Source: a virus
Taxonomy: Duplodnaviria > Caudoviricetes
Virus record (IMG/VR): IMGVR_UViG_2645727757_000001
Location: 96,001-160,000 of that record
Reading direction: 5' to 3' (one strand)
DNA: 64,000 nucleotides
The notes beneath the pieces are model-generated. The model was given only the letters and a program-made list of their open reading frames with translations. It did not search any database and had not been told where the DNA came from. The position numbers and the translations under genes were made by a program. Shown here in pieces: positions 2,759 through 32,793 of this stretch (position 1 is the stretch's first letter; every line of letters starts with the position of its first letter).

Positions 2759-3004
2759 GAGCTATTCCTCCTATCGTTAGGCTAAATAGATACATTTATA
2801 TAACAATAAAATATAATATTAAATATTATTATTAAGTCTATATAAAACAAACTCTATAGCTTCAATCGCTTGGTTGTTTATAGTAGTTTAATAACTAATA
2901 TGAAAAGTTATATTAAATTATTTTTATATACCTTTTAGCTAATATGTGTATAGCTTGTTGCTATAAATAGAGTAACCTCTATGTAAAAAGAAGGATACTT
3001 AATA

Positions 3005-3229
3005 TTAAGCATCCTTCGTATCTTTATAATATTTACCAAAACCATTATAGTCATATTCTTCTGGTAAGTTTTCGTAATATTCTCTTACAAATTCTTCTGA
3101 ATATGTTTTTTTCTCTTTTACTTTATTACTTAAAGCATTGGATATTTGTTCTCTCCAATCTTCAATCTGACAGTCAGTAATATTATTTTTTTTGTTTTTA
3201 TTAAATATTTTTCTTAAGTATTTTAACAA
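3005..3229 (-). CDS. hypothetical protein
   Basis: 74-aa ORF, TTG start with AGGAG RBS. Confidence 0.6.
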   Translation of the reverse strand: MLKYLRKIFNKNKKNNITDCQIEDWREQISNALSNKVKEKKTYSEEFVREYYENLPEEYDYNGFGKYYKDTKDA

Positions 3230-3242
3230 TTAATACCATCTC

Positions 3243-3374
3243 CTATATTATACCATTATCTTTTGCTTTCTTTGCGAAATTAACAGTTCCTTTACTTATA
3301 AAATATGATAGCATTACTATTTTAAAACATACTATCGCTTCATAAGAAAAGAACCTTGAAAATAATGCTGTCAT
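3243..3374 (-). CDS. small hydrophobic protein (43 aa, not in ORF track)
   Basis: AGGAGG RBS; MTALFSRFFSYEAIVCFKIVMLSYFISKGTVNFAKKAKDNGII. Confidence 0.55.
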   Translation of the reverse strand: MTALFSRFFSYEAIVCFKIVMLSYFISKGTVNFAKKAKDNGII

Positions 3375-3384
3375 AACTACCCTC

Positions 3385-3507
3385 CTAAATATTTCTTATA
3401 AAAGGCACGAACTCTGCTATTATTGTAAATAATTGTTTACTCATTAAGCATAAAAAGAAAAAGTCAACACCTAATGAAATTAAACCTTGTTTATATTCTT
3501 TTTCCAT
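3385..3507 (-). CDS. small hydrophobic protein (40 aa, not in ORF track)
   Basis: GAGG RBS; MEKEYKQGLISLGVDFFFLCLMSKQLFTIIAEFVPFIRNI. Confidence 0.5.
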   Translation of the reverse strand: MEKEYKQGLISLGVDFFFLCLMSKQLFTIIAEFVPFIRNI

Positions 3508-3540
3508 AATAAAAACCTCGCTACTAATTTTAATTATTTA

Positions 3541-3813
3541 TTATTTTAATATTGCATTCTTTACTGATTCTATTAAGCTGTCAACAACACCTTCTGTAGC
3601 CTTTCCTAAGTCTAATGATTCAAAAGCTCCACCAATATTACCTTTTAATACTAGTAGTGCATCTATAAAGTACATAGCTGTGCAAGAATAACCTGCAAGA
3701 CCTAATATAGATGCTATGCTCTTTTTACCTGCTGTTTCTATAACTTTTTTTGTAACAAAAGTAGTTCCAAACATTAAAACTACTTGTCCAAGTATTTTTC
3801 CTAATTGAGCCAT
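3541..3813 (-). CDS. SpoIIIAC/AD-like two-TM membrane protein
   Basis: TM-E-x-A-G-K-x-x-x-A-x-x-x-x-L-A-G-TM hairpin pattern; paralog of neighbours. Confidence 0.6.
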   Translation of the reverse strand: MAQLGKILGQVVLMFGTTFVTKKVIETAGKKSIASILGLAGYSCTAMYFIDALLVLKGNIGGAFESLDLGKATEGVVDSLIESVKNAILK

Positions 3814-3865
3814 AATATTACCTCCAAAAAAATATAGCTAGTATTTAGCACTAGCTATATTATTA

Positions 3866-4051
3866 TTATAAACTAGAAAGTTTCTTTGCTAATGATGCAA
3901 CAGCAGAAACAGCAGTTCCACCCATTATAGAAATACCTAATACTTCTGTTAATTTAGCTTGACTACCTCTTCCAGAAGCTTCTAATACAACACTAACGAT
4001 TGTAGTTCCAAATCCAACACCTAACATAGTTACTATAGTTCCAATACCCAT
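3866..4051 (-). CDS. SpoIIIAC-like two-TM membrane protein
   Basis: MGIGTIVTMLGVGFGTTIVSVVLEASGRGSQAKLTEVLG resembles SpoIIIAC (GVG....L..VL...G....A....L.G), 61 aa. Confidence 0.75.
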   Translation of the reverse strand: MGIGTIVTMLGVGFGTTIVSVVLEASGRGSQAKLTEVLGISIMGGTAVSAVASLAKKLSSL

Positions 4052-4108
4052 AATTTTATATCCTCCTCAATTTAAAAAGATTATTTTTATTTTAATTTTA
4101 ATATTAAT

Positions 4109-4297
4109 TTAAATAAGTTTCATAAGATTTTCAGCTAACAACAAAACTCCTGTAATTGTAGTACAAGCCATTATTACTATCCCTAATACTTCTGTTAGTT
4201 TTGCTTGATTATATTTGCCTAACGCTTCTAAAACAACACTAACTATTGTAGAGCTTATACCAATTCCAAGCATGGTTATTATAGTTTTTATACCCAT
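4109..4297 (-). CDS. SpoIIIAC-like two-TM membrane protein
   Basis: Close paralog of 3866..4051 (TIVSVVLEA.G...QAKLTEVLGI). Confidence 0.75.
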   Translation of the reverse strand: MGIKTIITMLGIGISSTIVSVVLEALGKYNQAKLTEVLGIVIMACTTITGVLLLAENLMKLI

Positions 4298-4323
4298 ATA
4301 ACTCTCCCTTTAAAGTATGCTTA

Positions 4324-4500
4324 TTAAAGATTTCTTAACAGATGTGCAATACTGATAACGTAAGGAATCGCAACTAAAAATAATAAACCTACACCTATAG
4401 TCTCTGCTACTTTTGCTAAGAATTCCTCATCATATTTTCTTAATATTGTACCAAGATGTGCGATACCTGTACCAGCGGCAATAATTATTATTTTATTCAT
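4324..4500 (-). CDS. SpoIIIAC-like membrane protein (58 aa, not in ORF track)
   Basis: AGGAG RBS; MNKIIIIAAGTGIAHLGTILRKYDEEFLAKVAETIGVGLLFLVAIPYVISIAHLLRNL; AKVAETIG matches AKLTEVLG of neighbours. Confidence 0.65.
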   Translation of the reverse strand: MNKIIIIAAGTGIAHLGTILRKYDEEFLAKVAETIGVGLLFLVAIPYVISIAHLLRNL

Positions 4501-4523
4501 AATTTTGCTCCTTTATTTAATTA

Positions 4524-4709
4524 TTAAAGTTTTATAAGTAGTTTTGTAATTGCACCAATGCTAATAAATGTAGCTACGCCTATCGTAGATAAGCTTGTAA
4601 CTCCTACTAACTTAGACAATGATTTCATATCATGTTGATCTAATGAATTACTAACTTGTGCGAGTATCATACTACTGCCGAGCATAATTATCATAGATTT
4701 TACAATCAT
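4524..4709 (-). CDS. divergent SpoIIIAC-like membrane protein
   Basis: 61 aa, two TM segments, IIMLG...L.....KSLSKL.GV pattern parallels neighbours. Confidence 0.55.
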   Translation of the reverse strand: MIVKSMIIMLGSSMILAQVSNSLDQHDMKSLSKLVGVTSLSTIGVATFISIGAITKLLIKL

Positions 4710-4725
4710 AATTATCCCCCTTTAT

Positions 4726-5109
4726 TTAAATTAAATTTTTTTTAAGTTCTTTTATTGAACCTCCACTTTCTTTCGCAATTTCCATTGATGAACATACCAT
4801 ATTAAAAGCTGTTAAAACTCCTATAGAAACCGCAGCATTATATATGTCCTTCTCTGACATATAAGAAATGTTTTTCTTTAGTTTATCTCTTTTTAAATTA
4901 AGATTATCGGTATTTTTTAAAGACATTATCAATTTGTTTTTATCAATATTAACGTATTGTTCCTTTGAAATGTAAGCATTTAAAAAATCATTAGCTACGT
5001 TATCAATAACAGTACTTGTTACCTCACTAATGATGTCAAACAGTAAAATCTCTGTAGCAGACCTAAAATCTGAATCATTTGCTTCATTTTTTATCAAATC
5101 AAATTCCAT
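4726..5109 (-). CDS. hypothetical protein
   Basis: 127-aa ORF, GGAGG RBS. Confidence 0.65.
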   Translation of the reverse strand: MEFDLIKNEANDSDFRSATEILLFDIISEVTSTVIDNVANDFLNAYISKEQYVNIDKNKLIMSLKNTDNLNLKRDKLKKNISYMSEKDIYNAAVSIGVLTAFNMVCSSMEIAKESGGSIKELKKNLI

Positions 5110-5125
5110 AATAAATTCCTCCGAT

Positions 5126-5431
5126 TCAATTATTTTTATTTCTGAAAGATATTTTACCTTCTTGAACTAACTTGCGGAGATTATTATATTGATCTCCTAT
5201 CTCCTTATATTCTTTCTTTAATGGAGAAGAATTATTCAAGTTATTTTTCATTGAATCATCAGTAAACTTGCTCCTTGCAAGAGAATAGCTATATATTTCT
5301 TCTTTTTTCTTTTTAAACCATAAAAGATTTACTATATATTTAATCCAATTTGGTAGCAAATATATAAATAATTTACCTAATAAATATATAGCTATTAGTT
5401 GAAATATGATAGTTAATATGGAAATGACCAA
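5126..5431 (-). CDS. N-terminally anchored basic membrane protein
   Basis: TTG start, AGGAGGTG RBS, N-terminal TM then basic tail. Confidence 0.65.
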   Translation of the reverse strand: MVISILTIIFQLIAIYLLGKLFIYLLPNWIKYIVNLLWFKKKKEEIYSYSLARSKFTDDSMKNNLNNSSPLKKEYKEIGDQYNNLRKLVQEGKISFRNKNN

Positions 5432-5743
5432 TATATCACCTCCTTGCTTTAGTATTTTTTATGATGGATTTCTTTTGTTGGGTATATTTACGATATACAA
5501 CGACATATCTATATAAGATATATAGATAATATGAAACATTAGTTTATATATAATAAACAATATTATATTAAGAACATATCATATGAATTACTAAACTAAT
5601 CACCTTGCGATAAACGATCAGCCTTCAATTGGCCTAGTCTAGCATACAGCATTAGAAGAGCAAGACACACAACATATCCATAATATATATTATTCATATA
5701 TATAGACAATATTTATACTACTAGATATAAATATTGATATGTA

Positions 5744-5781
5744 TAAAATAAGACCATTAAAAATTTAATGGTCTTATTTTT
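5744..5781. terminator. bidirectional intrinsic terminator-like hairpin
   Basis: aaaataagaccattaaa-a-tttaatggtcttatttt inverted repeat directly after the FtsK stop. Confidence 0.65.
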
Positions 5782-5785
5782 AAAA

Positions 5786-7363
5786 TTAATATCTTCTATA
5801 GGTATCTTTTATTCTATCTACATCTAAATCTATACTTATTTCAGAGTTATCGTTACTCTTTTTACTCTTAGTTTTCTTAGCTTTATCCTTTGATTTACCT
5901 TCAGTGTCTGATACAACTTCAACTTCTTTGTATTCTATTGCATTTATACTTTCTCCAATATCACCGCTATTTTCTTTTTCTATTTCATGGTACATTTCAA
6001 TTATCATTTTATCCATTTCATATTTTATTTTCTCTGCATTAGACTTTTTAGCTCCTGACTTATTATTAGGATCACTCTCATAAGCTTTTAATAAATCTTT
6101 TCTTAATTTTTGTCTTCTTTCAATCATATAATCTGATTTTCCAGGGATAAGATATTTTTGAATATTATTCTTTATATCTTCTGATGTTATCCAAGGTACT
6201 AATCCGTAACTTATGGTACTACCAAATTTATATGCAAATTCTCTTTGTTCTAATCTTAAAGCTAATTCTGGGTCATCAATAGCAACAGAACTTGATACAG
6301 CATTGTTTTGTCTAAAGGAAATAATCACTGTAGACTGGCTTTTGATGAATGGATCTAGGTTATCTTTAGTAGGTCTTTGAAGAGATACAATTAAGAATAC
6401 TCCAAGTGCTGCCCCGTATTGTGCGATACGTCTTATAAGCATATTTACTAAAGATTTATCATTTTTAAGTTCTTTGCTTTCTCCAGTACAAGCTTCATAT
6501 AAGGTTGATGCTTCATCAACAGCAACAATACAAGTTTTAATTTGGTCATTTGGATGTTGCTTATTGTAATCAACATAATTATCTCCTTTAAATGCCTTGT
6601 GCATAGGACGTATTTTCATTGTTCTTTCATTCATTTCACTAGCAATAATAAGTAAAGATTCTTTTATAGATTTAATATTATCTGCATATAAATTACAATG
6701 CGCCAAATCGGCGTATGGTTCTAAATCACTCTTTGAACCTTGAATAAGATTTAATTCAAGTTCTTCTGGAGTATAAAGTGATACTAAGTTTGTTATAATA
6801 CAATCTAACATCTTGGATTTTCCACTTCTGGTACCACCTGTCAATAAAATATGAGGTAATGTAAGCATATCAACAAATATAGGTTGACCAGAATAATCAT
6901 TTCCTAGATATAGGTTCCTAGGATTATTGTCTTTAGCTTTTAAAGGAGCTATAACTCTATATTTTAAATGTTCTTGTGTAGACATTATAAATTCTACTCT
7001 AACCATTCTTGAACGTTTATACCTATTTAATGTAACTAAACATCCTAAGCCATCTTGCAATTTTTCTTTTAACTCAACTAATTGAGTATAAGTTAAACCA
7101 GCAGTAAGGAAACATTCACTTTTATATCCATAGATAGTTTTTTCAGTAAAATTTAATCCATAAGTTTCGTAAAAATCATTTAAAGCACTTGAATTAACCA
7201 TTATTTTCATCCATTGTTCATGTAAATCTAAAATTGCTTTTTTCTCTTCTACACTTTTTAAGTATCTATCTATATATTTATTATTTTTCCTGCTAAATGG
7301 AATTCTTCTTAGCATTTCTGCAAATTTTTCATTATAAAATTTAGAATTTGATTTTTGATGCAT
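5786..7363 (-). CDS. FtsK/SpoIIIE-family ATPase
   Basis: PHILLTGGTRSGKS Walker A, IVAVDE Walker B, GVFLIVSLQRP motif. Confidence 0.9.
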   Translation of the reverse strand: MHQKSNSKFYNEKFAEMLRRIPFSRKNNKYIDRYLKSVEEKKAILDLHEQWMKIMVNSSALNDFYETYGLNFTEKTIYGYKSECFLTAGLTYTQLVELKEKLQDGLGCLVTLNRYKRSRMVRVEFIMSTQEHLKYRVIAPLKAKDNNPRNLYLGNDYSGQPIFVDMLTLPHILLTGGTRSGKSKMLDCIITNLVSLYTPEELELNLIQGSKSDLEPYADLAHCNLYADNIKSIKESLLIIASEMNERTMKIRPMHKAFKGDNYVDYNKQHPNDQIKTCIVAVDEASTLYEACTGESKELKNDKSLVNMLIRRIAQYGAALGVFLIVSLQRPTKDNLDPFIKSQSTVIISFRQNNAVSSSVAIDDPELALRLEQREFAYKFGSTISYGLVPWITSEDIKNNIQKYLIPGKSDYMIERRQKLRKDLLKAYESDPNNKSGAKKSNAEKIKYEMDKMIIEMYHEIEKENSGDIGESINAIEYKEVEVVSDTEGKSKDKAKKTKSKKSNDNSEISIDLDVDRIKDTYRRY

Positions 7364-7583
7364 TATTACTATCCTCCCTGCGCTTTTTAGAAGCTTGTAT
7401 AATTTTTCTACAATCCATAGATTTGTATTCTTTTACTTCTCTTATTTCATTTCCTTGTGCATCGTGTGAAATAACCTCAATTTTTGAAAAACCTTCTGTA
7501 TTTGTACCTTTCATAAGCATACAACCTACAATGCCACAACAAATTGTGCCACCAACCATTATTAATACATCGTTACTAATCAT
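7341..7583 (-). CDS. small single-TM protein overlapping the FtsK start
   Basis: N-terminal hydrophobic Cys/Gly-rich helix, strong RBS. Confidence 0.65.
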   Translation of the reverse strand: MISNDVLIMVGGTICCGIVGCMLMKGTNTEGFSKIEVISHDAQGNEIREVKEYKSMDCRKIIQASKKRREDSNNASKIKF

Positions 7584-7641
7584 AAATTTCCCTCCTTAAA
7601 TAAAAAAAAGTTATGCACTTATCGGTACACAACTTCTTAAT

Positions 7642-8340
7642 TTATAAATATTTATTTATTTCACTAACTATATATGGAGCATAAAAATAAGCCTCAACTA
7701 ATAATATTTTTTTAAAAGTATCATTTAAATCTTTAAAGTTTACTTTATCAAAAATATTAATAACATCTATTTTGGGTAAATTAAAAAATGTATTAAAATC
7801 TAACCCGAAATAGTTCCAATTGGTTAAATTCATAAAATAACCAGATGGAAAAAACAATAAAGGAACAGGCTTAAAATTATCATAATAAAACTTTATATCT
7901 TTATCTTTATAATCTATAGTTTTATTATTTTTATCTCCAATGATAAAAAGAACATAATTTAAAAACTTATCTATATTGTTTATATCATAGTTGATACATT
8001 TATCAACCATATCTTGAAGTACTTTAATTTCACTAGATCCACTAGAAGTTTTTATGTTTTTTATTGAATACTTATGATTTTTAATAGCATCTATCCTGTC
8101 ATTTGTAATTTTATCAAAAGCTATTAATTGCTTAAAAAAGCAACCGTGATAACATAAAGATTTAAATGGTAATTCTTCAAATATGCAATTAACACCAAAC
8201 TTTCTTATATTATCATCATATATATCTAGTATCTTATCTCTAAAATTAACAAATCTAAAGTTATCTTTTCTTTTGACTATATTAATTTTAGATTCCATTA
8301 ATGAATTTAAGTCATCAAAGTTAATCTTTTTATCATCCAT
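7642..8340 (-). CDS. hypothetical protein
   Basis: 232-aa ORF. Confidence 0.65.
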   Translation of the reverse strand: MDDKKINFDDLNSLMESKINIVKRKDNFRFVNFRDKILDIYDDNIRKFGVNCIFEELPFKSLCYHGCFFKQLIAFDKITNDRIDAIKNHKYSIKNIKTSSGSSEIKVLQDMVDKCINYDINNIDKFLNYVLFIIGDKNNKTIDYKDKDIKFYYDNFKPVPLLFFPSGYFMNLTNWNYFGLDFNTFFNLPKIDVINIFDKVNFKDLNDTFKKILLVEAYFYAPYIVSEINKYL

Positions 8341-8536
8341 ACACTATCATTCCCTTACTATTCTGTAATTAAATGGTAATATATATATGTTATTATGTCA
8401 ATTAGACATAGTATGTAAATAAAAGAAAGAAAAAGAGAAGAGATAATAATAAAACAATTAAATATCTCTTATAAACTCTTTTTAATTCTTAAACACTATT
8501 GAGCTAATGATAAAACAAAATTCTCAATAGTAAACC

Positions 8537-9034
8537 CTAAGAAACTTTAGAATCTTTTGCATTAATATTTTTCTTGTCATCTTTGTAATTTAAGTAAGAC
8601 ATATAATTTTCCTTAGCATATTTATAAAAATCAGATATACAACTATTACGATATACACCAGACTTTTTATAAGGCTTTTTTTGGAATTTATTGTTTGTCT
8701 GTTTCTTAGTGTTGTTTACATTAGCTTTTTTAAAATTTACGTTAGTATCTTTAACCTCGTTTTTATTATAATTAGAACTAAAGGTATTACTCATATTATC
8801 ATAATACTCTTGTTGATTCTTCTTATAATGTTTACCTTCTCTAGACTTAGCTACATAATAATTAAACTTATTACTAGCAAACTTATATCCTCTATTTCTT
8901 ATAAAGTTTCTTAAAGGATAAGGTACAAAACTAAGAGCTAAAGATGTCACAATTTTAGCAAGAACTAAAGTAATAACAGCAAATACTAAAACTACTAAGA
9001 TATTTCTAAAAATATTAAATATAAAATCCATCAT
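8537..9034 (-). CDS. N-terminally anchored basic membrane protein
   Basis: N-terminal TM then K/N-rich tail; architecture like 5126..5431. Confidence 0.7.
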   Translation of the reverse strand: MMDFIFNIFRNILVVLVFAVITLVLAKIVTSLALSFVPYPLRNFIRNRGYKFASNKFNYYVAKSREGKHYKKNQQEYYDNMSNTFSSNYNKNEVKDTNVNFKKANVNNTKKQTNNKFQKKPYKKSGVYRNSCISDFYKYAKENYMSYLNYKDDKKNINAKDSKVS

Positions 9035-9102
9035 AAAAATCCCTCCTTATCTTTAGTAGTATGTAAAAAGGATGTATCTGAAATCAAATACATCCATTAA
9101 TA

Positions 9103-10626
9103 TTAAGAATATGAAATAGATTTGGCTTTATTTTTAAATTTCTCTTCAAATCTACTTGTTTTCTTGACTTTGAATTTTTGTAAATTCTTATTAAAAATAT
9201 CATCATCAACTATGAAACTTCTTCCTGTATCTATACCATCTATATTTTCATAGACAAAAGTTCTTTTATTTACATCTAATGATATAGCTAGTTTTGCTGC
9301 TTCATCATTTCCTAAGGTAGTGTAAGCTGCTTCTTTGGTATTTTGTTTAAAGCATATTTTATTACATAAAAATCCTCTTAAACTAACACCAATAGAATCT
9401 TCACCAGCTCTTTGTGATAAAATAACAACATAAATTCCACTATTTCTTGCTTCTCTGCATAGTAAATTTAAAAGCTTATTATATTTCTTTTTCTTAGCTT
9501 TTATATCTGGAGAATCTGTATCATCTTCTTTGAAATTTGCAATTTCATCTATAATAAGCATTAATATAGGAAGTTTATTTTTTGCTATTTTATTATAGCT
9601 ATATATATTAGTTATATTTTCTTTACATTTGTTAAATAATGAATTTCTTATTTTGTGTTCATTCCTTAATCTCTCTAGTGATCCTATACATTTTTCTAAT
9701 GTTTCAGAATAAGAACAACATTGTTCTATATTTTTAAATGGTCTAAAATCTTGCTTATCAGTAAGCATATTGAAGAATAGACCTAATTTATCCTTGCCAT
9801 TTGAAAGACATGAGTTCATAAGTGCTGTCATTATAGCTATACTCTTTCCAGAACAAGGAATACCCCCAATTAAAGCATTAGGTAACTTTTTAAAATTTAA
9901 TATAATGTTCTTTTTAAAATTACCTAATCCAACACACAACTCATAAGGTTCAACCTTTACAGGTTTAAAATCATAATTAAAATTAACTTTTTGTTTTTCT
10001 ATATCTATAACAACTATATTTAAATCTTCATCCCATTTAATAATAGATTTTCCTAAAGATTTATCAATTAAATCTTTATGATTTTCTAGTACTTCATAAC
10101 TTAATCCTAGTGGTATATTAACTTTTAATCTATATCCAGCAACTTCTCCATCTACATAAATATCAGAAATATCTTCTATTTTATATGATTCTCCTATTAT
10201 ATTTCTAACTTTACTTTTATTTGAGAAAATTTTATCCCATATAAAATATATTTTTTCTTTATCATCTATAGGCAATTCATTTAAATGAACAATCATATTT
10301 GCAGATGTTTTATCTTTATTTAAAATAAATCTAACCTCTCCACCAAACGCTGATTCTATGCTAGATTGTAAAGATTTAAGGAAAGAAAAGTTTGTACCTT
10401 TTTTGAATTCTAAAGTGCTATCAAAACCATAAGACTTTATATCTATATCTGTTATTTCAAAAGTATCTTCTGATTTTCTATCAGTGCATCCTTTAATGAC
10501 ATCTTCCCATGATTCTTCTATTTTATTTTTTATCTTCAATGTTTTTCTAAAATCCTTAGTAAGATATGATATACCACAACACGCAATTCCTAAAAAGTAC
10601 AAACTAGCTAACATAATTTCATTCAC
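9103..10626 (-). CDS. FtsK/SpoIIIE-family ATPase with N-terminal TM
   Basis: PNALIGGIPCSGKS Walker A, LIIDE Walker B, GIYVVILSQR motif. Confidence 0.9.
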   Translation of the reverse strand: MNEIMLASLYFLGIACCGISYLTKDFRKTLKIKNKIEESWEDVIKGCTDRKSEDTFEITDIDIKSYGFDSTLEFKKGTNFSFLKSLQSSIESAFGGEVRFILNKDKTSANMIVHLNELPIDDKEKIYFIWDKIFSNKSKVRNIIGESYKIEDISDIYVDGEVAGYRLKVNIPLGLSYEVLENHKDLIDKSLGKSIIKWDEDLNIVVIDIEKQKVNFNYDFKPVKVEPYELCVGLGNFKKNIILNFKKLPNALIGGIPCSGKSIAIMTALMNSCLSNGKDKLGLFFNMLTDKQDFRPFKNIEQCCSYSETLEKCIGSLERLRNEHKIRNSLFNKCKENITNIYSYNKIAKNKLPILMLIIDEIANFKEDDTDSPDIKAKKKKYNKLLNLLCREARNSGIYVVILSQRAGEDSIGVSLRGFLCNKICFKQNTKEAAYTTLGNDEAAKLAISLDVNKRTFVYENIDGIDTGRSFIVDDDIFNKNLQKFKVKKTSRFEEKFKNKAKSISYS

Positions 10627-10852
10627 CTCTGGCTTTCTTAATTTTTATACCTATAATTTCAGTAATAATTAAAACAGAACCTATAGAAATAGTTGCAATA
10701 GATAAAGGATCAAGTGAACTTAACTTAGAAATAGCAATAGTATCAACATTATTTAAAACTTTAATAGCTAAAGGAGCAGAAACAGCTCCAATAGCCATAC
10801 ATTTTAAACTAGTACTAGGTTTATCTTTATAATAATCAACTAATTTACTCAT
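10619..10852 (-). CDS. small membrane protein
   Basis: 77 aa with two hydrophobic segments, overlaps the FtsK start. Confidence 0.65.
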   Translation of the reverse strand: MSKLVDYYKDKPSTSLKCMAIGAVSAPLAIKVLNNVDTIAISKLSSLDPLSIATISIGSVLIITEIIGIKIKKARGE

Positions 10853-10992
10853 TATATTGATTTCCTCCTATTCTTATATTGATTATCGTCATAGATATTT
10901 ACTAACTTTCCAGTTGAATCATCTATAACATCACTTTCTACATCACTTGAATATTTATTATAAATATCATCTATATAGTATTTATTTTTCAT
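10852..10992 (-). CDS. small acidic protein (46 aa, not in ORF track)
   Basis: Fills the gap and is coupled to both neighbours; MKNKYYIDDIYNKYSSDVESDVIDDSTGKLVNIYDDNQYKNRRKSI. Confidence 0.45.
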   Translation of the reverse strand: MKNKYYIDDIYNKYSSDVESDVIDDSTGKLVNIYDDNQYKNRRKSI

Positions 10993-11248
10993 TTTTCTCT
11001 TCTCCTGCGGCTAGTATCATACTTGCAGCTCCACCACAGAATACTGTAAAGTATGCTATAGTCATTCCAATTAATGAAGGTTGAGTTGATTGTGCTACAC
11101 TTGTATTTGCTATACATTCAAGAGTTTTATTGTTAAGTTGCATAAATGCGGGTATTATTACTGGAGAAAGTATTGTTCCACCTAATAGCATATTCATTCC
11201 ATTTCTAACGCTCTTTCTATTTGAATATTTTTCTAATAAATTTGTCAT
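10982..11248 (-). CDS. small membrane protein
   Basis: 88 aa, two hydrophobic segments, similar layout to 10619..10852. Confidence 0.65.
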   Translation of the reverse strand: MTNLLEKYSNRKSVRNGMNMLLGGTILSPVIIPAFMQLNNKTLECIANTSVAQSTQPSLIGMTIAYFTVFCGGAASMILAAGEEKNEK

Positions 11249-11262
11249 TTTAAAAATCCTCC

Positions 11263-11607
11263 TTATGATAAAATATCTATAAAATCTTGACCTATAGAAA
11301 TATAAAGTTTTATTATATCTGCAACTTTAGGGAATATAGCAACTAAAAGTTTGTTATATTTAACTAAGAAATCAACAATTATTTCTTCATCTAAACTAAT
11401 AGAACAAGAATCATCATCTAAATATTCAATATCTAGATTTTCAATAACATCATCAACAAAGTTATTTAATTCTTCTTTTAAACTATTTTCATCTGTAGAA
11501 TCATCAATAGATTTGCTTAAATTAATAGAACCATCCTTTATAGAATCAAAAACCTTCATAAATTCAATACCTTCATTTTTACTAATTATAATTTTCATTA
11601 CCTTCAC
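11263..11607 (-). CDS. hypothetical acidic protein
   Basis: 114-aa ORF. Confidence 0.65.
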   Translation of the reverse strand: MKVMKIIISKNEGIEFMKVFDSIKDGSINLSKSIDDSTDENSLKEELNNFVDDVIENLDIEYLDDDSCSISLDEEIIVDFLVKYNKLLVAIFPKVADIIKLYISIGQDFIDILS

Positions 11608-11641
11608 CTCAATTAAAATTTAAATTTATAATAAAAACTTT

Positions 11642-12166
11642 TTAATAAATGAAATTTGGAACAATTTCAACGTATTTTTCTGGTTTATTGTTAGTTGCAT
11701 ATATAGAATCTCCACACCATAAACCATTTAATGGAGCATTAAAACCACAATATTCGTATCTATAATCATCATCCATAGTTGATGTAAGAAGTGGAAGAGG
11801 ATGTATAGTTAAACCATTTCTACACTTAGGACATTTAGTAAGATCAATATAATAAGCACAAGTATCATTAACAAGATATCTAAAATTATTTCCTGGGTTT
11901 TCATAGAATTCTAAATCTTTATAACTAGCTGATTCTATAAATAAATTAATACCTTTATCATTTGTGAATAATCCTTTCATAGCATAATCTCCACACCAAA
12001 TAATTTTATCCTTATACCAAGGTCCATCTTCTCCTATAAGCTCCATAACTCTGTTCATAAAAGGATTGTTTATAAAAGAGTGTTCAAAGAATTTAGTTCC
12101 ATCATCAAGATTTGATTGCATAACTTCCTTTTTAGTTAAATTTACCACTTTAAAATATTGTCCCAT
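11642..12166 (-). CDS. conserved phage hypothetical protein (MGQY..VNL..KE / G.K..EHS / HPLPLLT / G.W.GD)
   Basis: Recognisable conserved motif set, AGGAGG RBS. Confidence 0.75.
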   Translation of the reverse strand: MGQYFKVVNLTKKEVMQSNLDDGTKFFEHSFINNPFMNRVMELIGEDGPWYKDKIIWCGDYAMKGLFTNDKGINLFIESASYKDLEFYENPGNNFRYLVNDTCAYYIDLTKCPKCRNGLTIHPLPLLTSTMDDDYRYEYCGFNAPLNGLWCGDSIYATNNKPEKYVEIVPNFIY

Positions 12167-12224
12167 AAAAATATTCCCTCCTAAAAAATAAGGAAGCTAC
12201 ATAAGTAGCCTCCTAAAATTATTA

Positions 12225-12929
12225 TTATTCTATACAAGTTTTATTCAAAGTTAACATACTTACTATAGCTTTAGCTACGTGACATATTAAAGTTATACCT
12301 TTAGTTAATATTAAACCTAGTATTTCTATAACTGTAAAAGTAACATCTTTAACAGCATCTATTACAATGCCTAATGTATCACCTATTGTACCTAAAACCT
12401 TGGATGCGAAACCTTTTGCGAGTTTCTTTTGTGGTACCTTAAAGTTCTTACTAAGCTCATAAGATTTCTTTGAATAGTAACCAGATTTCATGTAATTTTG
12501 TAACTTCTCTAAGAATTTTCTTGATTTTTTGGCTTCCTCCTTAGTGATATTTGGATCTTCTTCAACCTCAATCATTTCTACTTCTTCAAGAATATCATTA
12601 ACATCTTTTTTATTTTCTTTATCGTTAATATTTTTATTTTCTTTATTCTTTGTATCTGTATTTGCTTTAACAACATCTTCTTTATTTTCCTTAACCTTAT
12701 CTTCTTTTTGTTCAACTTCTTCATCCTCTTCTGTATATGAATATTCATCTAAGGTATTTTTATCTGTAGGGTTTTTCTTAGAAGAAACTTTCTTTTCTTT
12801 ACCTCCTTCATCCATTACTAGATTTGTAGATTCAACATTGACATATTCAGAATCGGATGATACAACTTCTGTAGTTGAAGTAATATCATCTTCGCCTAAA
12901 TCAACAACATTGTCTAATTTAATCTTCAT
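12225..12929 (-). CDS. acidic protein with amphipathic/hydrophobic C-terminus
   Basis: 234-aa ORF; hairpins on both sides. Confidence 0.7.
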   Translation of the reverse strand: MKIKLDNVVDLGEDDITSTTEVVSSDSEYVNVESTNLVMDEGGKEKKVSSKKNPTDKNTLDEYSYTEEDEEVEQKEDKVKENKEDVVKANTDTKNKENKNINDKENKKDVNDILEEVEMIEVEEDPNITKEEAKKSRKFLEKLQNYMKSGYYSKKSYELSKNFKVPQKKLAKGFASKVLGTIGDTLGIVIDAVKDVTFTVIEILGLILTKGITLICHVAKAIVSMLTLNKTCIE

Positions 12930-12999
12930 ATTAATTTCCTCCTTATTGTTATATATAAAAAAAGAAGCTGAAAAATTCAGCTCCTAATTTATCTAATAT

Positions 13000-13377
13000 T
13001 TAATTATCCATATCTATATCACCATTGGTTTCAATGACAACCTCTTCTTTAATATCTGTATTGTTATTATCTTTAACCTCAATATTATTATCTATATCAT
13101 CTATAATATCTTTTTCTTTGATTCCATTTTCTTCAACTTCATTTGTATCTATATCTTTTATTGGAATAGTAGATGTTTCTGATAAATACATTCCATTTTT
13201 AATATTATCTTCTTCTTCTATTCTATTTACTTCGTATCCTATAGAATCAAGATATTTTGTTACTGCAATTTTAACTAATTTTGATGGTGAAATCATAGGG
13301 TTTTCTTCAAGATAATGAAAAATCCTTGAATTTTTCTTTCTTGTTATTGAAGCACCTATATATTTTTTATCTTGCAT
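13000..13377 (-). CDS. ParR-like adaptor (ribbon-helix-helix-like N-terminus, acidic tail)
   Basis: Directly downstream of parM; IGASITRKKNSRIFHYLE...SPSKLVKIAVTKYL. Confidence 0.6.
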   Translation of the reverse strand: MQDKKYIGASITRKKNSRIFHYLEENPMISPSKLVKIAVTKYLDSIGYEVNRIEEEDNIKNGMYLSETSTIPIKDIDTNEVEENGIKEKDIIDDIDNNIEVKDNNNTDIKEEVVIETNGDIDMDN

Positions 13378-13400
13378 AAACTTTTTCTCCTTCCAAATGA

Positions 13401-14417
13401 TTATTCTTCTGAATCATCTTTTGTATCAAAACCTTCAAATGTTACTTTTGCGGCTCTTTCATATGCTAAGGCATTTGAGAATTGTGGATTTTTCTCTACA
13501 ATAATATCCTCTTGGTCAATTCCATTAGCTTCCATTACATAAGGTTTAAGAAGTGCAGCACAACCACCTATAAGATATAATTTATCTGCCATTAAGTCAA
13601 AATTATTCTTTTCAAGTTCTGCTTTTATTCTATTAACAAAGTCTAGTAATATATTATCTACATCTTTTGATATATCAATAGTTCCTTGACCAATTCTTTT
13701 GAATTTCTTGTTTAATAAAAGTTTAACAGCATCATCTGTAGTCACATTTCTAAACTTATGTTTATTTGTTAAAATAGTCTTGAAATTTGTAAGTAAAGCT
13801 TCAAAACCCAAGTCATTAAAAGTAAATACATTTCCATTCTTATAGAACTTTCCGTCTATAAGTTCCCATTTACCTGCATCAAAAGTACCTCCACCAAAGT
13901 CATATACAATACAACAAGTATTTTCTTTAGAGATTATTGCAGATTGTGGTTCGACTATGGCATCCTCTACTGTTAAGGCATATTGTATTCCATCTAGTTC
14001 AACAGGCATATTTTTGATTTTTAATGCTGATTGTCTACATTCTTCTTTACAATCATCAAATTGCTCTAATGGTGTACCAAGACCAATTTTAGCTCTTATG
14101 TCTATAGGCATATCTCTTAATGTTTTTTTAGGATTATCTTTTAAAAATTTCTTTTGTGCTGATCTTATTATAGCTGTACAAAGAGTAGCAGTATAAATAT
14201 CTTTTTCGTATTTTGTAGGTCCTGTAAATGAAGAACCTTCTTCATCACCTACTTTATATTCCTTACCGTCTATAATTACATCATAGCTGTTTCTTATATG
14301 GCTTGTACCATATCTGTTTGACACATAAGACAGAAATCTAACACCTCTTGATGTTTTAGTATAAGCGTTACCAATATCAACGCCTAAAATGATTCTAAAG
14401 ATTTTTTTTGCTCCCAT
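13401..14417 (-). CDS. parM: ParM/StbA-family actin-like ATPase (plasmid partition)
   Basis: Phosphate-1 GVDIGNAYTK, LGTP, EPQS, phosphate-2 DFGGGT, adenosine IGGCA, PQFSNA. Confidence 0.9.
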   Translation of the reverse strand: MGAKKIFRIILGVDIGNAYTKTSRGVRFLSYVSNRYGTSHIRNSYDVIIDGKEYKVGDEEGSSFTGPTKYEKDIYTATLCTAIIRSAQKKFLKDNPKKTLRDMPIDIRAKIGLGTPLEQFDDCKEECRQSALKIKNMPVELDGIQYALTVEDAIVEPQSAIISKENTCCIVYDFGGGTFDAGKWELIDGKFYKNGNVFTFNDLGFEALLTNFKTILTNKHKFRNVTTDDAVKLLLNKKFKRIGQGTIDISKDVDNILLDFVNRIKAELEKNNFDLMADKLYLIGGCAALLKPYVMEANGIDQEDIIVEKNPQFSNALAYERAAKVTFEGFDTKDDSEE

Positions 14418-14429
14418 GTTGTTCCTCCT

Positions 14430-14640
14430 AATTATTACTAATATTATTTCACTATCTTTTTACAAATTTAGTGAAATATATGTATATATCTATAATTATC
14501 TACAAATATAATACTATATTTATATATAATTATTCAACTATAAATATATAAAAATAAAAATATATGTAACTATATACATATATAAATATATAAAATTATA
14601 TACTTATATATGTATAGAATTATATATATTGAAATAAAAA
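14430..14640. promoter_or_regulatory. putative parC centromere/promoter region
   Basis: Very AT-rich tract with repeated tatat(a/g)/ataa motifs immediately upstream of parM; inferred from position. Confidence 0.35.
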
Positions 14641-26964: not shown

Positions 26965-27068
26965 AATTTTAACACTCCTTTTATTCAAATCATAATTTTT
27001 ATAAAGCACTTAGTAATAAAGCAATAAAAAAGAGGAAGCCAATTTTTTTGACTTCCACTTAGTAAAAC

Positions 27069-29697: not shown

Positions 29698-30723
29698 TTA
29701 AGTAATATATTTATTTTTATAAGAGGAATTTTCAACCTTGCTTCTAATTGCATCGCTACAATCAAGTAGAATTTGTATGGCCATCTTGCTATAAATAATA
29801 ACAACAAATGGTTTCTTATAATATGCTTTTATTACATATCTACGCATTAGGTAATCACCTATAAATTCCATTACTATTTTGTCTTTGCATGATATTGTTA
29901 ATCCCATTCTTGTAATATTAGCTGATTTTTCAAAAATCCCTTCAATAAAAGCATCTTGGTACTCTATTGGTATATTTAAGCCTTTGTTCGTAATGAAAGA
30001 TTTAAAATCATTTATCAAATTAACGTCCCTTGATTTCATTAAATATGATGTTTGTCCCGATTTTATAATTGTTGGTTTAATTAAAAATACTTCATCAACA
30101 ATTAACTCTAATAATTCCACTTGCTTTATAGGTAAAGTAAATGTTATTTCATATTTGTTTACAGCTACATTTTTTATATTGTAAGTAGAAAACATTACAC
30201 CTAAAATATAAGCCTTGCTATTGTCAAGTTTATTAAAATATCCTATTTTATAAGGTGCTTTAACTGAATTTAAAAGTGTTCTAATTTTTTTATGATGTAG
30301 TATTCTTTCTACTTTTCTATTACTTAAATTTACCTCTTTAGCTATATCTGGAACTTTTTTACCACCAATATAATCATTAACTATAATATTAACTATATTT
30401 TTATCAAGTTCATCAATAAATAAAAGTTCTTTTTTTCTTGAATTAATTATTGTATTAATAGTTGAATATGATAATCCATATCTTTCTGCTATTTTTCTTG
30501 TTGCACACCCATCTAAATATTCTTTATATATTTTATCTTTTTCCTTTTCGGAAGCTCTTCTAAACTTCCCATTAGCTACTTTATCGCCTAAATTTCTTTT
30601 TATAGTTTCAGCAGAAACCTCATAAAGTTCTCCAATTTCTTTGAGGCTCATTCCAGATTCATACATATTTTTTATAGTTTCTATATCTTCAAATGATATT
30701 TTCCTTTTTCCCATGTTCCTCAC
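29698..30723 (-). CDS. triple-HTH + degenerate LAGLIDADG protein (paralog 4)
   Basis: Three HTH repeats; YFNKLDNSKAYILGVMFST and FIEGIFEKSA in place of the active motifs. Confidence 0.8.
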   Translation of the reverse strand: MRNMGKRKISFEDIETIKNMYESGMSLKEIGELYEVSAETIKRNLGDKVANGKFRRASEKEKDKIYKEYLDGCATRKIAERYGLSYSTINTIINSRKKELLFIDELDKNIVNIIVNDYIGGKKVPDIAKEVNLSNRKVERILHHKKIRTLLNSVKAPYKIGYFNKLDNSKAYILGVMFSTYNIKNVAVNKYEITFTLPIKQVELLELIVDEVFLIKPTIIKSGQTSYLMKSRDVNLINDFKSFITNKGLNIPIEYQDAFIEGIFEKSANITRMGLTISCKDKIVMEFIGDYLMRRYVIKAYYKKPFVVIIYSKMAIQILLDCSDAIRSKVENSSYKNKYIT

Positions 30724-30724
30724 C

Positions 30725-31759: not shown

Positions 31760-31780
31760 TCCCTAACCTCTCCCATATTG

Positions 31781-32782: not shown

Positions 32783-32793
32783 TTAAATAAAAT

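Follow-up and report, generated by a model that had tools for sequence, protein, structure and literature searches.

The locus and its two ATPases

We describe here a block of genes at positions 3243-11248 of a 64,000-nucleotide stretch of viral DNA (positions 96,001 to 160,000 of the IMG/VR record IMGVR_UViG_2645727757_000001; hereafter the window), in which two ATPase genes of the FtsK/SpoIIIE class stand among genes for small membrane proteins, next to a partition locus. Bases 3000-14500 of the window are 100% identical to plasmid pCBJ of Clostridium baratii str. Sullivan (NZ_CP006906.1), a circular molecule of 185,364 bp of which the window is C1:96001-160000 (C1 being our label for the plasmid); the size and gene count of pCBJ are also given in the available portion of PMC8879937. 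In its plus-strand half the window has genes for a large terminase, a portal, a major capsid protein, a tail sheath, a holin and an endolysin, the remainder of pCBJ encodes baseplate and fibre proteins, and there is a replication set made up of DnaB, a primase, a split PolIII alpha, a split RecA, GroEL/GroES, a dUTPase and a thymidylate kinase. Since it has both virion genes and a replication set of its own, pCBJ is a phage-plasmid of the c-st-like myophage type; Clostridium phage c-st, its match in kind and size, also provides the closest phage relatives of the module genes. GC content ranges over about 0.22-0.34. Up to about position 36,000 of the window all genes are on the minus strand, opposite to the virion genes, and the FtsK module lies within the part of pCBJ devoted to plasmid lifestyle and maintenance. 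All the open reading frames (ORFs) of the module are on the minus strand, at the following coordinates (aa, amino acids; nt, nucleotides; TM, transmembrane):

13401-14417, minus strand: ParM-like actin segregation ATPase, 338 aa (ALP_N, E 8e-11; ParM_N, E 1.5e-6; phrog_691, E 7e-29)
13000-13377, minus strand: candidate ParR adaptor, 125 aa, acidic, directly after parM
12225-12929, minus strand: acidic protein of 234 aa with a C-terminal hydrophobic hairpin (residues 186-223), own transcription unit
11642-12166, minus strand: phage protein of 174 aa, first gene of the FtsK2 unit (phrog_3156, E 2.3e-10; phrog_35050, E 1.9e-5)
11263-11607, minus strand: strongly acidic protein of 114 aa, net charge -14, no family match in Pfam
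10982-11248, minus strand: two-TM membrane protein of 88 aa (hydrophobic segments 20-38 and 62-82)
10852-10992, minus strand: ORF for a soluble peptide of 46 aa, ORF only, hypothetical in RefSeq
10619-10852, minus strand: protein of 77 aa with a C-terminal TM segment (49-71), coupled to the FtsK2 start
9103-10626, minus strand: FtsK2, FtsK/SpoIIIE-family ATPase of 507 aa with one N-terminal TM segment
8537-9034, minus strand: basic protein of 165 aa with an N-terminal membrane anchor (TM 1-41), net charge +20
7642-8340, minus strand: soluble protein of 232 aa, followed by a terminator-like site (7638-7605)
7341-7583, minus strand: protein of 80 aa with an N-terminal TM segment (1-26), overlapping the FtsK1 start by 23 nt
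5786-7363, minus strand: FtsK1, FtsK/TcpA-class ATPase of 525 aa without TM segment or gamma domain
5432-5785, minus strand: non-coding gap of 354 nt after FtsK1, beginning with a terminator hairpin
5126-5431, minus strand: basic protein of 101 aa with an N-terminal membrane anchor (TM 1-30), net charge +9
4726-5109, minus strand: protein of 127 aa, outside the cassette in relatives, no family match (Pfam, PHROG, NCBIfam)
3866-4709, minus strand: array of four paralogues, each a membrane hairpin of two helices (61, 58, 62 and 61 aa)
3541-3813, minus strand: hairpin-like protein of 90 aa, counterpart of the second hairpin of the cassette
3243-3507, minus strand: two tiny hydrophobic ORFs (40 and 43 aa) with one hydrophobic segment each, coding sequences in RefSeq

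The initial annotation, made from the letters alone, had recognised two FtsK/SpoIIIE ATPases, and both do pass the cut-off of 24 bits for Pfam FtsK_SpoIIIE (PF01580), FtsK1 with 74.9 bits (E 8e-21) and FtsK2 with 27.8 bits (E 2e-6); both also match phrog_1358 ('FtsK/SpoIIIE-like protein'), at E 1.5e-55 and 2.7e-41, respectively. Walker A (G176-S183), D283 E284 and Q329 R330 P331 of FtsK1 are invariant in a 23-member family alignment, and so are Walker A (G254-K261), Walker B (D360 E361) and Q405 R406 of FtsK2 in an alignment of 4 members. Judged by their family matches and by their conserved Walker A, Walker B and arginine-finger motifs, both enzymes are intact. A Kyte-Doolittle scan for TM segments (19-residue window, threshold 1.6) found no hydrophobic segment in FtsK1, while cellular FtsK genes (in loci L017 and L018) gave 4-5 in the same scan; neither pCBJ protein matches Ftsk_gamma (PF09397) in Pfam, a domain which the cellular matches do carry. 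The AlphaFold 2 (AF2) model of FtsK1, with a mean predicted local distance difference test score (pLDDT) of 77.7, is ordered over about residues 30-430 and disordered over 434-525. Its top Foldseek match is the coupling protein TcpA of pCW3 (6o1y; E 1.8e-23, template modelling score 0.68); the double-stranded DNA motor of FtsK (2ius) comes at E 1.4e-21, with a template modelling score of 0.71 and a root-mean-square deviation of 4.4, lower than for TcpA, and 6t8g also matches the motor fold (score about 0.71). The fold thus fits TcpA and the FtsK motor about equally, and the structure cannot decide between a coupling protein and a translocase.

A small TM gene had likewise been placed directly upstream of each ATPase gene, and this is what we find: 7341-7583 runs into FtsK1 by the 23 nt given above, and 10619-10852 either overlaps the GTG start of FtsK2 in our ORF call by 8 nt or stops 4 nt before the RefSeq start at 10614. 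Each ATPase gene would in this way be translationally coupled to a gene for a tiny membrane protein. The further idea that the module is a duplicated one has to be abandoned. FtsK1 and FtsK2 are only 22% identical (E 2e-16) in an all-against-all BLAST, and in a maximum-likelihood tree of 29 FtsK-like proteins (midpoint root) they fall into separate clades, FtsK1 nested in that of the six-gene cassette described below (support 100/99) and FtsK2 grouping with its three relatives (100/100); a recent tandem duplication of the ATPase unit was ruled out on these two grounds. The well-supported separation suggests instead that pCBJ has two anciently diverged lineages set side by side. A wider Clostridium phage group (98/99) holds both ATPases and leaves out cellular FtsK as well as TcpA and TcpB, which have a clade of their own (100/99). 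The genes flanking the two ATPases are no closer to each other: the two small TM proteins upstream give no BLAST match at E < 1, so that their likeness is architectural only, and of the similarity claimed for the two basic proteins downstream, the architecture stands (N-terminal TM segment, charges of +9 and +20) and the sequence similarity does not (no BLAST match at E < 1). When proteins were searched with FtsK1, about 65 clusters at 37-84% identity came before a steep fall to cellular FtsK (E 2e-44, then 6e-17). For FtsK2 only 3 relatives were found, at 30-89% identity; viral contigs yielded none, and one FtsK2-like locus (L037) was recovered on a metagenome contig of 4.2 kb. ATPases of the FtsK2 type thus seem to be rare. 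The two-motor layout is nevertheless common to at least two other elements, with relatives of both ATPases on one contig of 60,969 bp and one of 10,300 bp (proteins P0002 and P0126 on one contig, P0003 and P0125 on the other).

As to expression, 12 terminator-like sites were observed against 1.5 expected from shuffling, and together with the hairpin read directly after FtsK1 they split the region into at least six transcription units rather than one operon. Such sites follow, among others, the candidate ParR gene (12985-12963), the 12225-12929 gene (12214-12191) and FtsK2 (9095-9070). Promoters of the sigma-70 type were not in excess (87 found, 92 expected in shuffled sequence). Where the initial annotation had counted more than a dozen small membrane proteins, the array of small TM proteins is real and their number about 12: eleven small ORFs with a hydrophobic segment by the scan of 3243-11248, and a twelfth (3541-3813) which is a hairpin by homology. 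The neighbouring ParMRC-type locus, also predicted, is present as an actin-like ParM with an adjacent small adaptor, ParM being clear and the adaptor weakly matched (NCBIfam ParR family NF010497, E 1.3e-3, far under the cut-off). Several of the other proteins resemble nothing in the collections searched. This is the case for the 12225-12929 protein (Pfam, PHROG, NCBIfam), for the 8537-9034 protein (Pfam, NCBIfam) and for the 11642-12166 protein as far as Pfam is concerned. The soluble 7642-8340 protein, for which Pfam, PHROG, NCBIfam and PADLOC returned no match and Atlas a sub-lead score of 0.76, was also considered as a relative of the nuclease discussed below and ruled out (hhalign probability 0.1). 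The 10619-10852 protein shows weak similarity to the hairpin encoded at 4524-4709 (E 0.005), and in L037, a locus with an FtsK2-like gene, a 75-aa protein with a C-terminal TM segment holds the same place before that gene.

That the window lacks a relaxase, VirB4 and an FtsK gamma domain had been noted from the start, and the statement can be extended to the whole of pCBJ, of which 202 ORFs (24 + 125 + 53; outside the module, ORFs of at least 60 aa at E <= 1e-4) were scanned with Pfam: no relaxase, VirB4, VirB6, type IV coupling protein or Ftsk_gamma was found among them. When the Tcp proteins of pCW3 were compared by BLAST with the six frames of pCBJ, only the ATPase cores and the NlpC/P60 domain of a tail protein matched, and there is no TcpC, TcpD, TcpE, TcpF or TcpH. 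A type IV secretion system (T4SS), a Tcp system or a relaxase located elsewhere on the 185,364-bp plasmid, which could have explained the ATPases, is ruled out by these searches, and the description of a non-T4SS module of FtsK-class DNA-pump ATPases and membrane proteins in a phage-plasmid is supported. Three other assignments were tried and rejected. The type VII proteins EssC/EccC match at the level of the domain only (43-55 bits, cut-off 778), with no WXG100, EssA or EssB in the Pfam scans; Streptomyces TraB (NCBIfam plasmid_TraB) is matched by FtsK2 only, with 15.4 bits against a cut-off of 800, and FtsK1 has no folded C-terminal domain; and matches to known defence systems in PADLOC are confined to the generic ATPase domain, which resembles the FtsK-like parts of SspH and mad8 (E 7e-17 and 1e-11), none of the accessory proteins of the module matching a defence model.

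The six-gene cassette of the relatives

By gene order and homology, FtsK1 is a member of a collinear six-gene cassette found in 15 other loci: four loci in genomes, all four of Clostridium (C. celatum, C. brassicae and two metagenome-assembled genomes of Clostridium sp.), ten IMG/VR contigs of 30-194 kb, and genes CST192-CST197 of phage c-st. The order is a tiny TM protein (49-57 aa; TM segment at the N-terminus, tail basic and conserved), the ATPase (434-496 aa, without TM segment), a protein of 195-208 aa combining a winged helix-turn-helix (wHTH) with a PD-(D/E)XK nuclease domain, a conserved gap of about 330-440 nt, an N-anchored basic protein (87-114 aa), hairpin 1 (61-69 aa) and a second hairpin-like protein (66-98 aa). 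Among the ten IMG/VR loci, the wHTH-nuclease and the tiny TM protein are present in all, the basic anchor in nine and the hairpins in nine, the sole miss for the hairpins being on a contig that ends too early. The cassette is also found on viral contigs of only about 35 kb (L020, L021, L024), and the core pair of FtsK and nuclease on elements of 34-59 kb.

The nuclease assignment comes from a structure prediction. The AF2 model of the 195-aa protein (pLDDT 90.7) has an N-terminal winged helix followed by a restriction-endonuclease-like domain, its Foldseek matches include FokI, XisH, Bax1, EndoMS, McrC and Hjc (E 6e-4 to 5e-2), and the invariant residues of the family are H79, Y86, E103, D112, E129 and H134; a wHTH plus PD-(D/E)XK nuclease fold is thus predicted. 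The c-st member, CST194, gives a weak match to Replic_Relax (PF13814; 16.4 bits, cut-off 25.3, E 0.01), and the L010 protein gives none. Relaxases of the MOBC type combine a wHTH with a restriction-endonuclease-like (PD-(D/E)XK) fold. In a sample of 401 genomes, the nuclease profile was matched in 7 at E <= 1e-3, with one strong match, the centre genome itself. The gap that follows the nuclease gene is conserved as well: in an alignment of it (A3), 26 columns are invariant over 11 loci, between which the ATPases are only 36-48% identical. Of the blocks in this gap (which in L023, for example, is 9932-10272), one comes directly after a terminator and another, of about 25 nt, has an AAGT-N6-ACTT inverted repeat. 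These blocks are a candidate binding or cleavage site of the wHTH-nuclease, or else a promoter or operator. A structured RNA was dismissed, with no Rfam match in or near the gap at E <= 1 and a negligible consensus fold (-0.8 kcal/mol). So was a sporulation-type promoter: a conserved CATAnnnTA-like box precedes the tiny TM gene in 6 of the 11 relative loci aligned (five of the seven c-st-like IMG/VR loci, and L012) and has no pCBJ counterpart, but in such AT-rich DNA it is no evidence.

Two further families were observed around the cassette. In three c-st-like contigs, proteins of 176-180 aa with the SpoIVA ATPase domain (PF09547, E 3e-10 to 3e-14, above the cut-off) are encoded just downstream of it (L022:11603-12133, L026:11486-12028, L027:11924-12454); this second sporulation-related family has no pCBJ homologue by BLAST. 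A metal-dependent hydrolase of the YdjM type (PF04307) regularly follows the FtsK and nuclease pair (L022, L025-L028, L038-L041). It is homologous to TcpI of pCW3 (36482-36976; 29-34% identity, E 1e-9 to 7e-5), and no counterpart was found in pCBJ.

FtsK1 and its neighbours in pCBJ would be a derived copy of this cassette. The product of 7341-7583 is the positional counterpart of the tiny TM protein, sharing position and architecture with the 49-57-aa proteins of the 15 cassettes and, by eye, a short pattern in its C-terminal tail (M-x-C-R ... KK ... terminal F); its match to the profile of these proteins is non-significant (E 0.3). The product of 5126-5431 is in the same way the positional counterpart of the N-anchored basic protein, again without a significant profile match (E 0.12 with a first profile, none with a larger one). 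The hairpins, for their part, match the cassette profiles clearly (E 3e-11). What pCBJ does not have is the nuclease: neither tblastn nor two hidden Markov models run over the six frames revealed the gene or a remnant of it, with nothing below E 0.25. The 354-nt gap (5432-5785) sits where relatives carry the nuclease gene, and can be aligned with the cassette blocks only in part, the main block being left unaligned in a second alignment. Present in pCBJ beyond the cassette are the 127-aa ORF, the FtsK2 unit as a whole and a further two or three hairpin paralogues. In L037, whose ATPase is 29% identical to FtsK2, a wHTH-nuclease gene lies downstream (E 2e-30). Since the nuclease thus also stands beside an FtsK2-like gene, both lineages were presumably paired with it ancestrally, and pCBJ has either lost it twice or replaced it. 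Both pCBJ ATPases are conserved in at least two other elements, which we count as selection in the absence of the nuclease.

The hairpins deserve a closer look, as they had been described as a SpoIIIAC-like array. Two of them (3866-4051 and 4109-4297) are 62% identical (E 3e-22), the other pairs matching at E 3e-4 to about 1e-2, and these two match the profile of cassette hairpin 1 at 3e-11 and 4e-11. The 3541-3813 protein matches the hairpin-1 profile at E 1.6e-4, the hairpin-2 profile at E 2.8e-3 and the 3866-4051 protein at E 0.002. The cut-offs of the sporulation families are not reached, with 17.1-20.0 bits against 24 for PF06686 (SpoIIIAC/SpoIIIAD) and 20.6 and 22.0 bits against 56.65 for TIGR02848 (the SpoIIIAC equivalog), so that membership as such falls. 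Homology does hold at a distance. A profile (A2) built from ten phage hairpins was searched against 1.84 billion protein cluster representatives and matched 59 of them at E <= 1e-3; of the 57 taken into the reciprocal scan (one input row and one protein of 1,454 aa being left out), 15 pass the TIGR02848 cut-off, 26 match below it and 16 do not match. As the reciprocal search reaches genuine SpoIIIAC while the phage proteins themselves score under the cut-offs, the phage hairpins are best seen as remote homologues that form a sister family of SpoIIIAC, and not as members. No other family of the spoIIIA operon (AA to AH) appeared in any Pfam scan of pCBJ. Hairpin homologues in phages were not found by tblastn, and a word index gave 4 proteins.

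The company kept by the cassette is to a large extent that of partition and replication genes. In c-st it follows a MerR-type gene, TubZ and TubR; in L022 and L025-L028 the genes before it are Rep3, one of the MerR type, a small wHTH gene and one of the tubulin/FtsZ family; in L023 a tubulin-like gene is downstream of it, in L024 a ParA-type ATPase and a resolvase are upstream, and in L010 there is a borderline match to an actin-like (Alp) protein nearby (26.2 bits against 26.3). Four small Clostridium phage-plasmids were inspected; all of them, with phage lysis or tail genes or a resolvase, carry the FtsK and wHTH-nuclease pair (E 2e-6 to 4e-26) followed by the YdjM-type hydrolase. The neighbour of this core pair is ParM in C. 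tetani and C. kluyveri and a ParA-like ATPase in C. estertheticum, where a gene of the SpoIIIAC family is directly upstream; in C. perfringens, and also in C. tetani, the pair adjoins a resolvase. In L011 the flanking ORFs suggest a chromosomal insertion.

The plasmid relatives nearest to FtsK1 are all elements of Clostridium or Sarcina, of 34-215 kb. More distantly, tblastn with FtsK1 matched 371 phage records, of Bacillus (255), Mycobacterium (52), Geobacillus (8), Clostridium (4) and a few others, among them Listeria (6), Staphylococcus (6), Ralstonia (5), Enterococcus (2) and Streptococcus (2), and tblastn with FtsK2 matched 101, of Bacillus (98) and Clostridium (3). Many of the Bacillus matches listed are herelleviruses, and the one placed in the tree groups with cellular FtsK (99/97), which makes a separate acquisition of these genes likely. 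The non-sporulating hosts were followed up in one of the six Listeria and one of the two Enterococcus records: both have a full-length, multi-TM cellular FtsK, and since it lies among housekeeping-type genes these records look like host DNA. The initial annotation would have been contradicted by a module common in non-sporulating hosts; among the named records, all carriers of the close family are Clostridium or Sarcina, the wider FtsK and nuclease pair occurring in Bacillus and Geobacillus phages. Such a range would be compatible with a link to endospore formation, a link confounded by phylogenetic distance from the query. A case apart is the lytic herellevirus TimeGriffin of Bacillus (L019, 59925-70758), with, in this order, a ParM-like gene, an M23 peptidase, a tiny TM protein, a 6-TM protein, a 741-aa FtsK-like protein that groups with cellular FtsK and a 2-TM hairpin; its layout of FtsK and membrane proteins near an actin-like gene seems to be convergent, by separate acquisition.

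Other observations concern pCBJ at large. A Rep3-type initiator gene (window 35197-36372, minus strand; Rep3_N, E 7.5e-20; Rep3_C, E 2.3e-13) lies about 21 kb from ParMR and belongs to the same family as that adjoining TubZ and the cassette in c-st-like contigs. At 22780-27009 (minus strand) a protein of 1409 aa matches Pfam RdRP (E 5e-22) and is probably a YonO-like single-subunit RNA polymerase, an enzyme reported for phage c-st in the consulted part of PMC7824862. Four tandem paralogous genes at 29698-33828 (minus strand) encode proteins of 333-344 aa with repeated N-terminal helix-turn-helix motifs, two of which also match the endonuclease family phrog_4645. The recA gene consists of two ORFs flanking a LAGLIDADG endonuclease gene (L007:6259-8757 = C1:82259-84757) and the gene for PolIII alpha is interrupted by one for an HNH endonuclease (L007:9849-14232 = C1:85849-90232), while L009:8391-15353 is an ORF of 2320 aa with intein and LAGLIDADG domains. 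L008:8252-8590 (C1:168252-168590) encodes a 112-aa protein of the anti-Thoeris family Tad4 (PF25186, E 7e-38) and L006:11734-12585 an ArdC-like anti-restriction protein (ArdcN plus zincin peptidase). The botulinum neurotoxin F7 cluster of strain Sullivan is on the plasmid according to the section of PMC8879937 at hand; no clostridial neurotoxin domain appeared in the general Pfam scans of the 202 ORFs (E <= 1e-4 outside the module), in which no search was dedicated to it.

Possible roles of the module

The reading that we favour, tentatively and at less than an even chance, makes the module a membrane-tethered pump for double-stranded DNA that works on the DNA of the element itself and so serves its inheritance; that the ATPases are tethered, what they act on, that they sit at a septum and which way they pump are what we infer. 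Partition and dimer resolution would thereby be joined by a third function in inheritance. An ATPase that is soluble by itself would be kept at the membrane or septum by the tiny TM proteins, a passage through the membrane would be built or lined by the hairpins and basic anchors, and DNA caught by, or beside, a closing division or sporulation septum would be pumped through. In the relatives, the wHTH-nuclease may provide site recognition or an entry cut at the conserved gap, a partner which pCBJ would have lost. In favour of this, FtsK2 has a TM segment of its own, and FtsK1, which lacks one, has its start overlapped by the gene of a TM protein; moreover, the cassette or the core pair is repeatedly found beside genes for TubZ, ParM, ParA-like proteins or resolvases. 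On the same side we count the intact motifs of both ATPases, the DNA-motor fold of FtsK1, the collinearity of the cassette in 15 other loci, the conservation of both ATPases in elements other than pCBJ, the lack of a T4SS or relaxase among the 202 ORFs, and the kinship of the hairpins with SpoIIIAC.

Several observations weigh against such an inheritance pump. A partition NTPase was found near the cassette in 9 of 16 loci (10 with one borderline case), the flanks of the other six having been scanned partly or not at all. The cassettes of L012 and L013 lie just after the lysis cassette, at the end of integrated prophages, and the core pair has the same place in Geobacillus PK5.1, Bacillus Pavlov and C. 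perfringens LPCPA58; in an integrated prophage, a role in plasmid inheritance or a plasmid-specific route into the spore would be needless, and a position beside the lysis cassette is typical of morons and defence genes. The homology of the tiny TM protein and basic anchor of pCBJ to the cassette proteins has position and architecture behind it and is statistically unsupported. The pairing of ATPase and wHTH-nuclease, constant in the relatives and hidden from the initial annotation by the absence of the gene from pCBJ, fits mobilisation or defence equally well. Lastly, it is not evident how a ring translocase would act on a closed circular plasmid that has not been cut, and the nuclease is lacking in pCBJ.

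The main rival is mobilisation, which we regard as unlikely though not negligible. The ATPase would be a coupling protein of the TcpA type and the wHTH-nuclease a relaxase of the MOBC/Replic_Relax type acting on an origin of transfer in the gap, the DNA leaving through the mating pore of a co-resident conjugative element, and the pCBJ module would be a remnant of this or repurposed. TcpA is indeed the top structural match of FtsK1, CST194 has its weak Replic_Relax match within a family of wHTH plus PD-(D/E)XK proteins, the YdjM-like hydrolase is homologous to TcpI, and the conserved non-coding blocks adjoin the nuclease gene. In the accessible text of PMC5357655, PF13814 proteins are treated as MobC relaxases and FtsK-like proteins as TcpA coupling proteins, and small C. 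perfringens plasmids bearing ftsK/spoIIIE are suggested to be mobilisable in that of PMC10210947. But the phage clade (98/99) stands apart from TcpA and TcpB, with 25% identity to TcpA over the core only, and MobC relaxases occur with VirD4 coupling proteins and never with TcpA, as far as the accessible text of PMC5357655 goes. Five of five inspected carrier plasmids were typed as non-mobilizable (by a typing that recognises known relaxases only), the carriers are phages with a route of their own between cells, and pCBJ keeps two intact ATPases without a nuclease. The loss of the nuclease in an element with two intact and conserved ATPases speaks mildly, for pCBJ, against both the relaxase and the defence readings.

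One form of inheritance pump deserves separate mention, although we consider it quite unlikely: import of the element's genome into the forespore, as proposed in the initial annotation. Phages and phage-plasmids of endospore-forming clostridia would then carry a private apparatus of the 'SpoIIIE + SpoIIIA-like' kind, with an FtsK-class pump kept at the sporulation septum by the tiny membrane proteins and a passage of SpoIIIAC-like hairpins bringing their own genome from the mother cell into the forespore. In the relatives the DNA would first be cut at the conserved site by the nuclease, inheritance through the only surviving cell would be guaranteed, and pCBJ would represent a two-motor, multi-hairpin form. 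Such an import would account for the relationship of the hairpins to SpoIIIAC and for the host range.

Defence comes after mobilisation among the rivals and seems improbable to us. A membrane-held translocase, with its nuclease in the relatives, would destroy or expel incoming DNA, as superinfection exclusion or as protection against phages or plasmids. This would fit the place of the core pair between the lysis cassette and the lysogeny genes in prophages and siphophages, where morons usually lie, the PHROG category of the ATPase ('moron, auxiliary metabolic gene and host takeover'), the combination of an ATPase with a PD-(D/E)XK nuclease, a common defence layout, and the resemblance of the ATPase domains to parts of SspH and mad8 in PADLOC. 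The latter matches, however, concern a generic ATPase domain with no accessory protein, the nuclease is absent from pCBJ, and strict collinearity over deep divergence, together with the linkage to partition and replication genes, is unlike the patchy turnover of defence genes.

A role in the lytic cycle, such as pulling in a long genome after partial ejection, organising replicating DNA or taking over the host, has little probability in our view. The genome of pCBJ is long (185 kb), FtsK-like genes flanked by membrane proteins occur in strictly lytic Bacillus herelleviruses, the FtsK-like gene of TimeGriffin is about 3 kb from its ParM-like gene, and the ATPase gene of phage Fah is of the delayed class according to the part of PMC4113786 consulted. 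But the herellevirus protein, which groups with cellular FtsK and was separately acquired, offers little guidance, the cassette has its place among the genes for plasmid maintenance, on the other strand from the virion genes, and it is found on contigs of about 35 kb (the core on elements of 34-59 kb), where genome length is no issue.

Autonomous transfer of double-stranded DNA between neighbouring cells in the manner of TraB, with the small membrane proteins as counterparts of the Streptomyces Spd proteins, is the least probable: a single type of FtsK-like ATPase with several small membrane proteins and no T4SS would suit it, and the separate wHTH protein and conserved blocks of the relatives could stand for the TraB wHTH and the clt site, but the plasmid_TraB match is negligible, the wHTH partner of the relatives has a nuclease domain and no pCBJ counterpart, and TraB-type transfer is known only in mycelial actinomycetes, none being known in unicellular Bacillota.

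If the module is a true inheritance device, it would represent a third class of maintenance function for plasmid-prophages and offer a handle on their persistence through sporulation; if it is a pair of coupling protein and relaxase, large phages would be able to travel by conjugation also. The c-st group of phage-plasmids includes neurotoxin-converting phages, whose lysogeny is known to be unstable. The link between a SpoIIIAC-like hairpin and an FtsK-type ATPase may also bear on the role of SpoIIIAC and SpoIIIAD.

Comparison with known systems

Phage genes of the FtsK/SpoIIIE-like kind have been on record for two decades, and the portions of PMC4113786 and PMC9658697 available offer only guesses at what they do in sporulation or DNA movement. 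Among open-access papers and preprints we found none that describes the cassette or tests the function of a phage FtsK-like protein, and the six-gene cassette, with its SpoIIIAC-related hairpins and its tie to partition, appears to be undescribed in the literature searched. The module appears to belong among the FtsK/TcpA-class modules borne by plasmids and phages, the cassette being new within that kind; what was a loose observation is now a defined object, a collinear cassette whose parts include a partner nuclease, hairpins related to SpoIIIAC and a non-coding site that is conserved.

With cellular FtsK and SpoIIIE, FtsK1 shares the alpha/beta motor fold and the Walker and arginine-finger motifs, but the pCBJ ATPases have neither the four-TM N-terminal domain, nor the linker, nor the gamma domain. 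The latter (a wHTH, PF09397) reads the FtsK-orienting polar sequences (KOPS) or the SpoIIIE recognition sequences (SRS). The hairpins of pCBJ are like SpoIIIAC and SpoIIIAD of the SpoIIIA-SpoIIQ channel in being two-helix membrane hairpins of about 60 aa, and unlike them in being linked to an FtsK-like ATPase and not to SpoIIIAA.

Closer in kind is the conjugation locus of C. perfringens pCW3. TcpA has, like FtsK1, a single FtsK_SpoIIIE domain and is its best structural match, the locus has two FtsK-like ATPases (TcpA and its paralogue TcpB) and small membrane proteins (TcpD/E) as pCBJ does, and the pCW3 hydrolase TcpI has its homologue beside the cassette of the relatives. However, the 25% identity between TcpA and FtsK1 makes TcpA no closer than cellular FtsK, and FtsK1 has no TM segment. 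For single-domain FtsK-like proteins of mobilisable elements of Firmicutes (streptococci), the assignment as TcpA coupling proteins, with PF13814 as the MobC relaxase superfamily, is found in the excerpt consulted of PMC5357655, and the available part of PMC10210947 says of the small C. perfringens plasmids with ftsK/spoIIIE that they 'may be mobilizable'.

Phages of Bacillus and Geobacillus (PK5.1, Pavlov) have the same core of FtsK and Replic_Relax proteins (with a TrbC/VirB2-like protein in addition in some), preceded by a small TM protein. Their ATPases differ from those of the Clostridium group in having their own N-terminal TM segment and in branching outside it, and no SpoIIIAC-like hairpin was detected with them. 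A Replic_Relax protein near ParM is also mentioned for phage Izhevsk in the part of PMC7685451 at hand, and the delayed-class gene of phage Fah, cited above, encodes an FtsK/SpoIIIE ATPase.

The closest parallel is c-st itself, whose TubZRC system was reportedly described by Oliva et al. in 2012, and whose cassette genes are annotated only as hypothetical or FtsK/SpoIIIE-like. They differ in content: c-st has one ATPase, the wHTH-nuclease CST194, two hairpins and TubZR, against two ATPases, four to five hairpin paralogues and ParMR in pCBJ, where the nuclease is lacking. The two phage-plasmids are alike in size (about 185 kb), the FtsK-like ATPase encoded within CST192-CST197 is 28% identical to FtsK1 (E 3e-34), and in both a tiny TM protein precedes the ATPase and an N-anchored basic protein and SpoIIIAC-like hairpins follow it, beside the partition genes.

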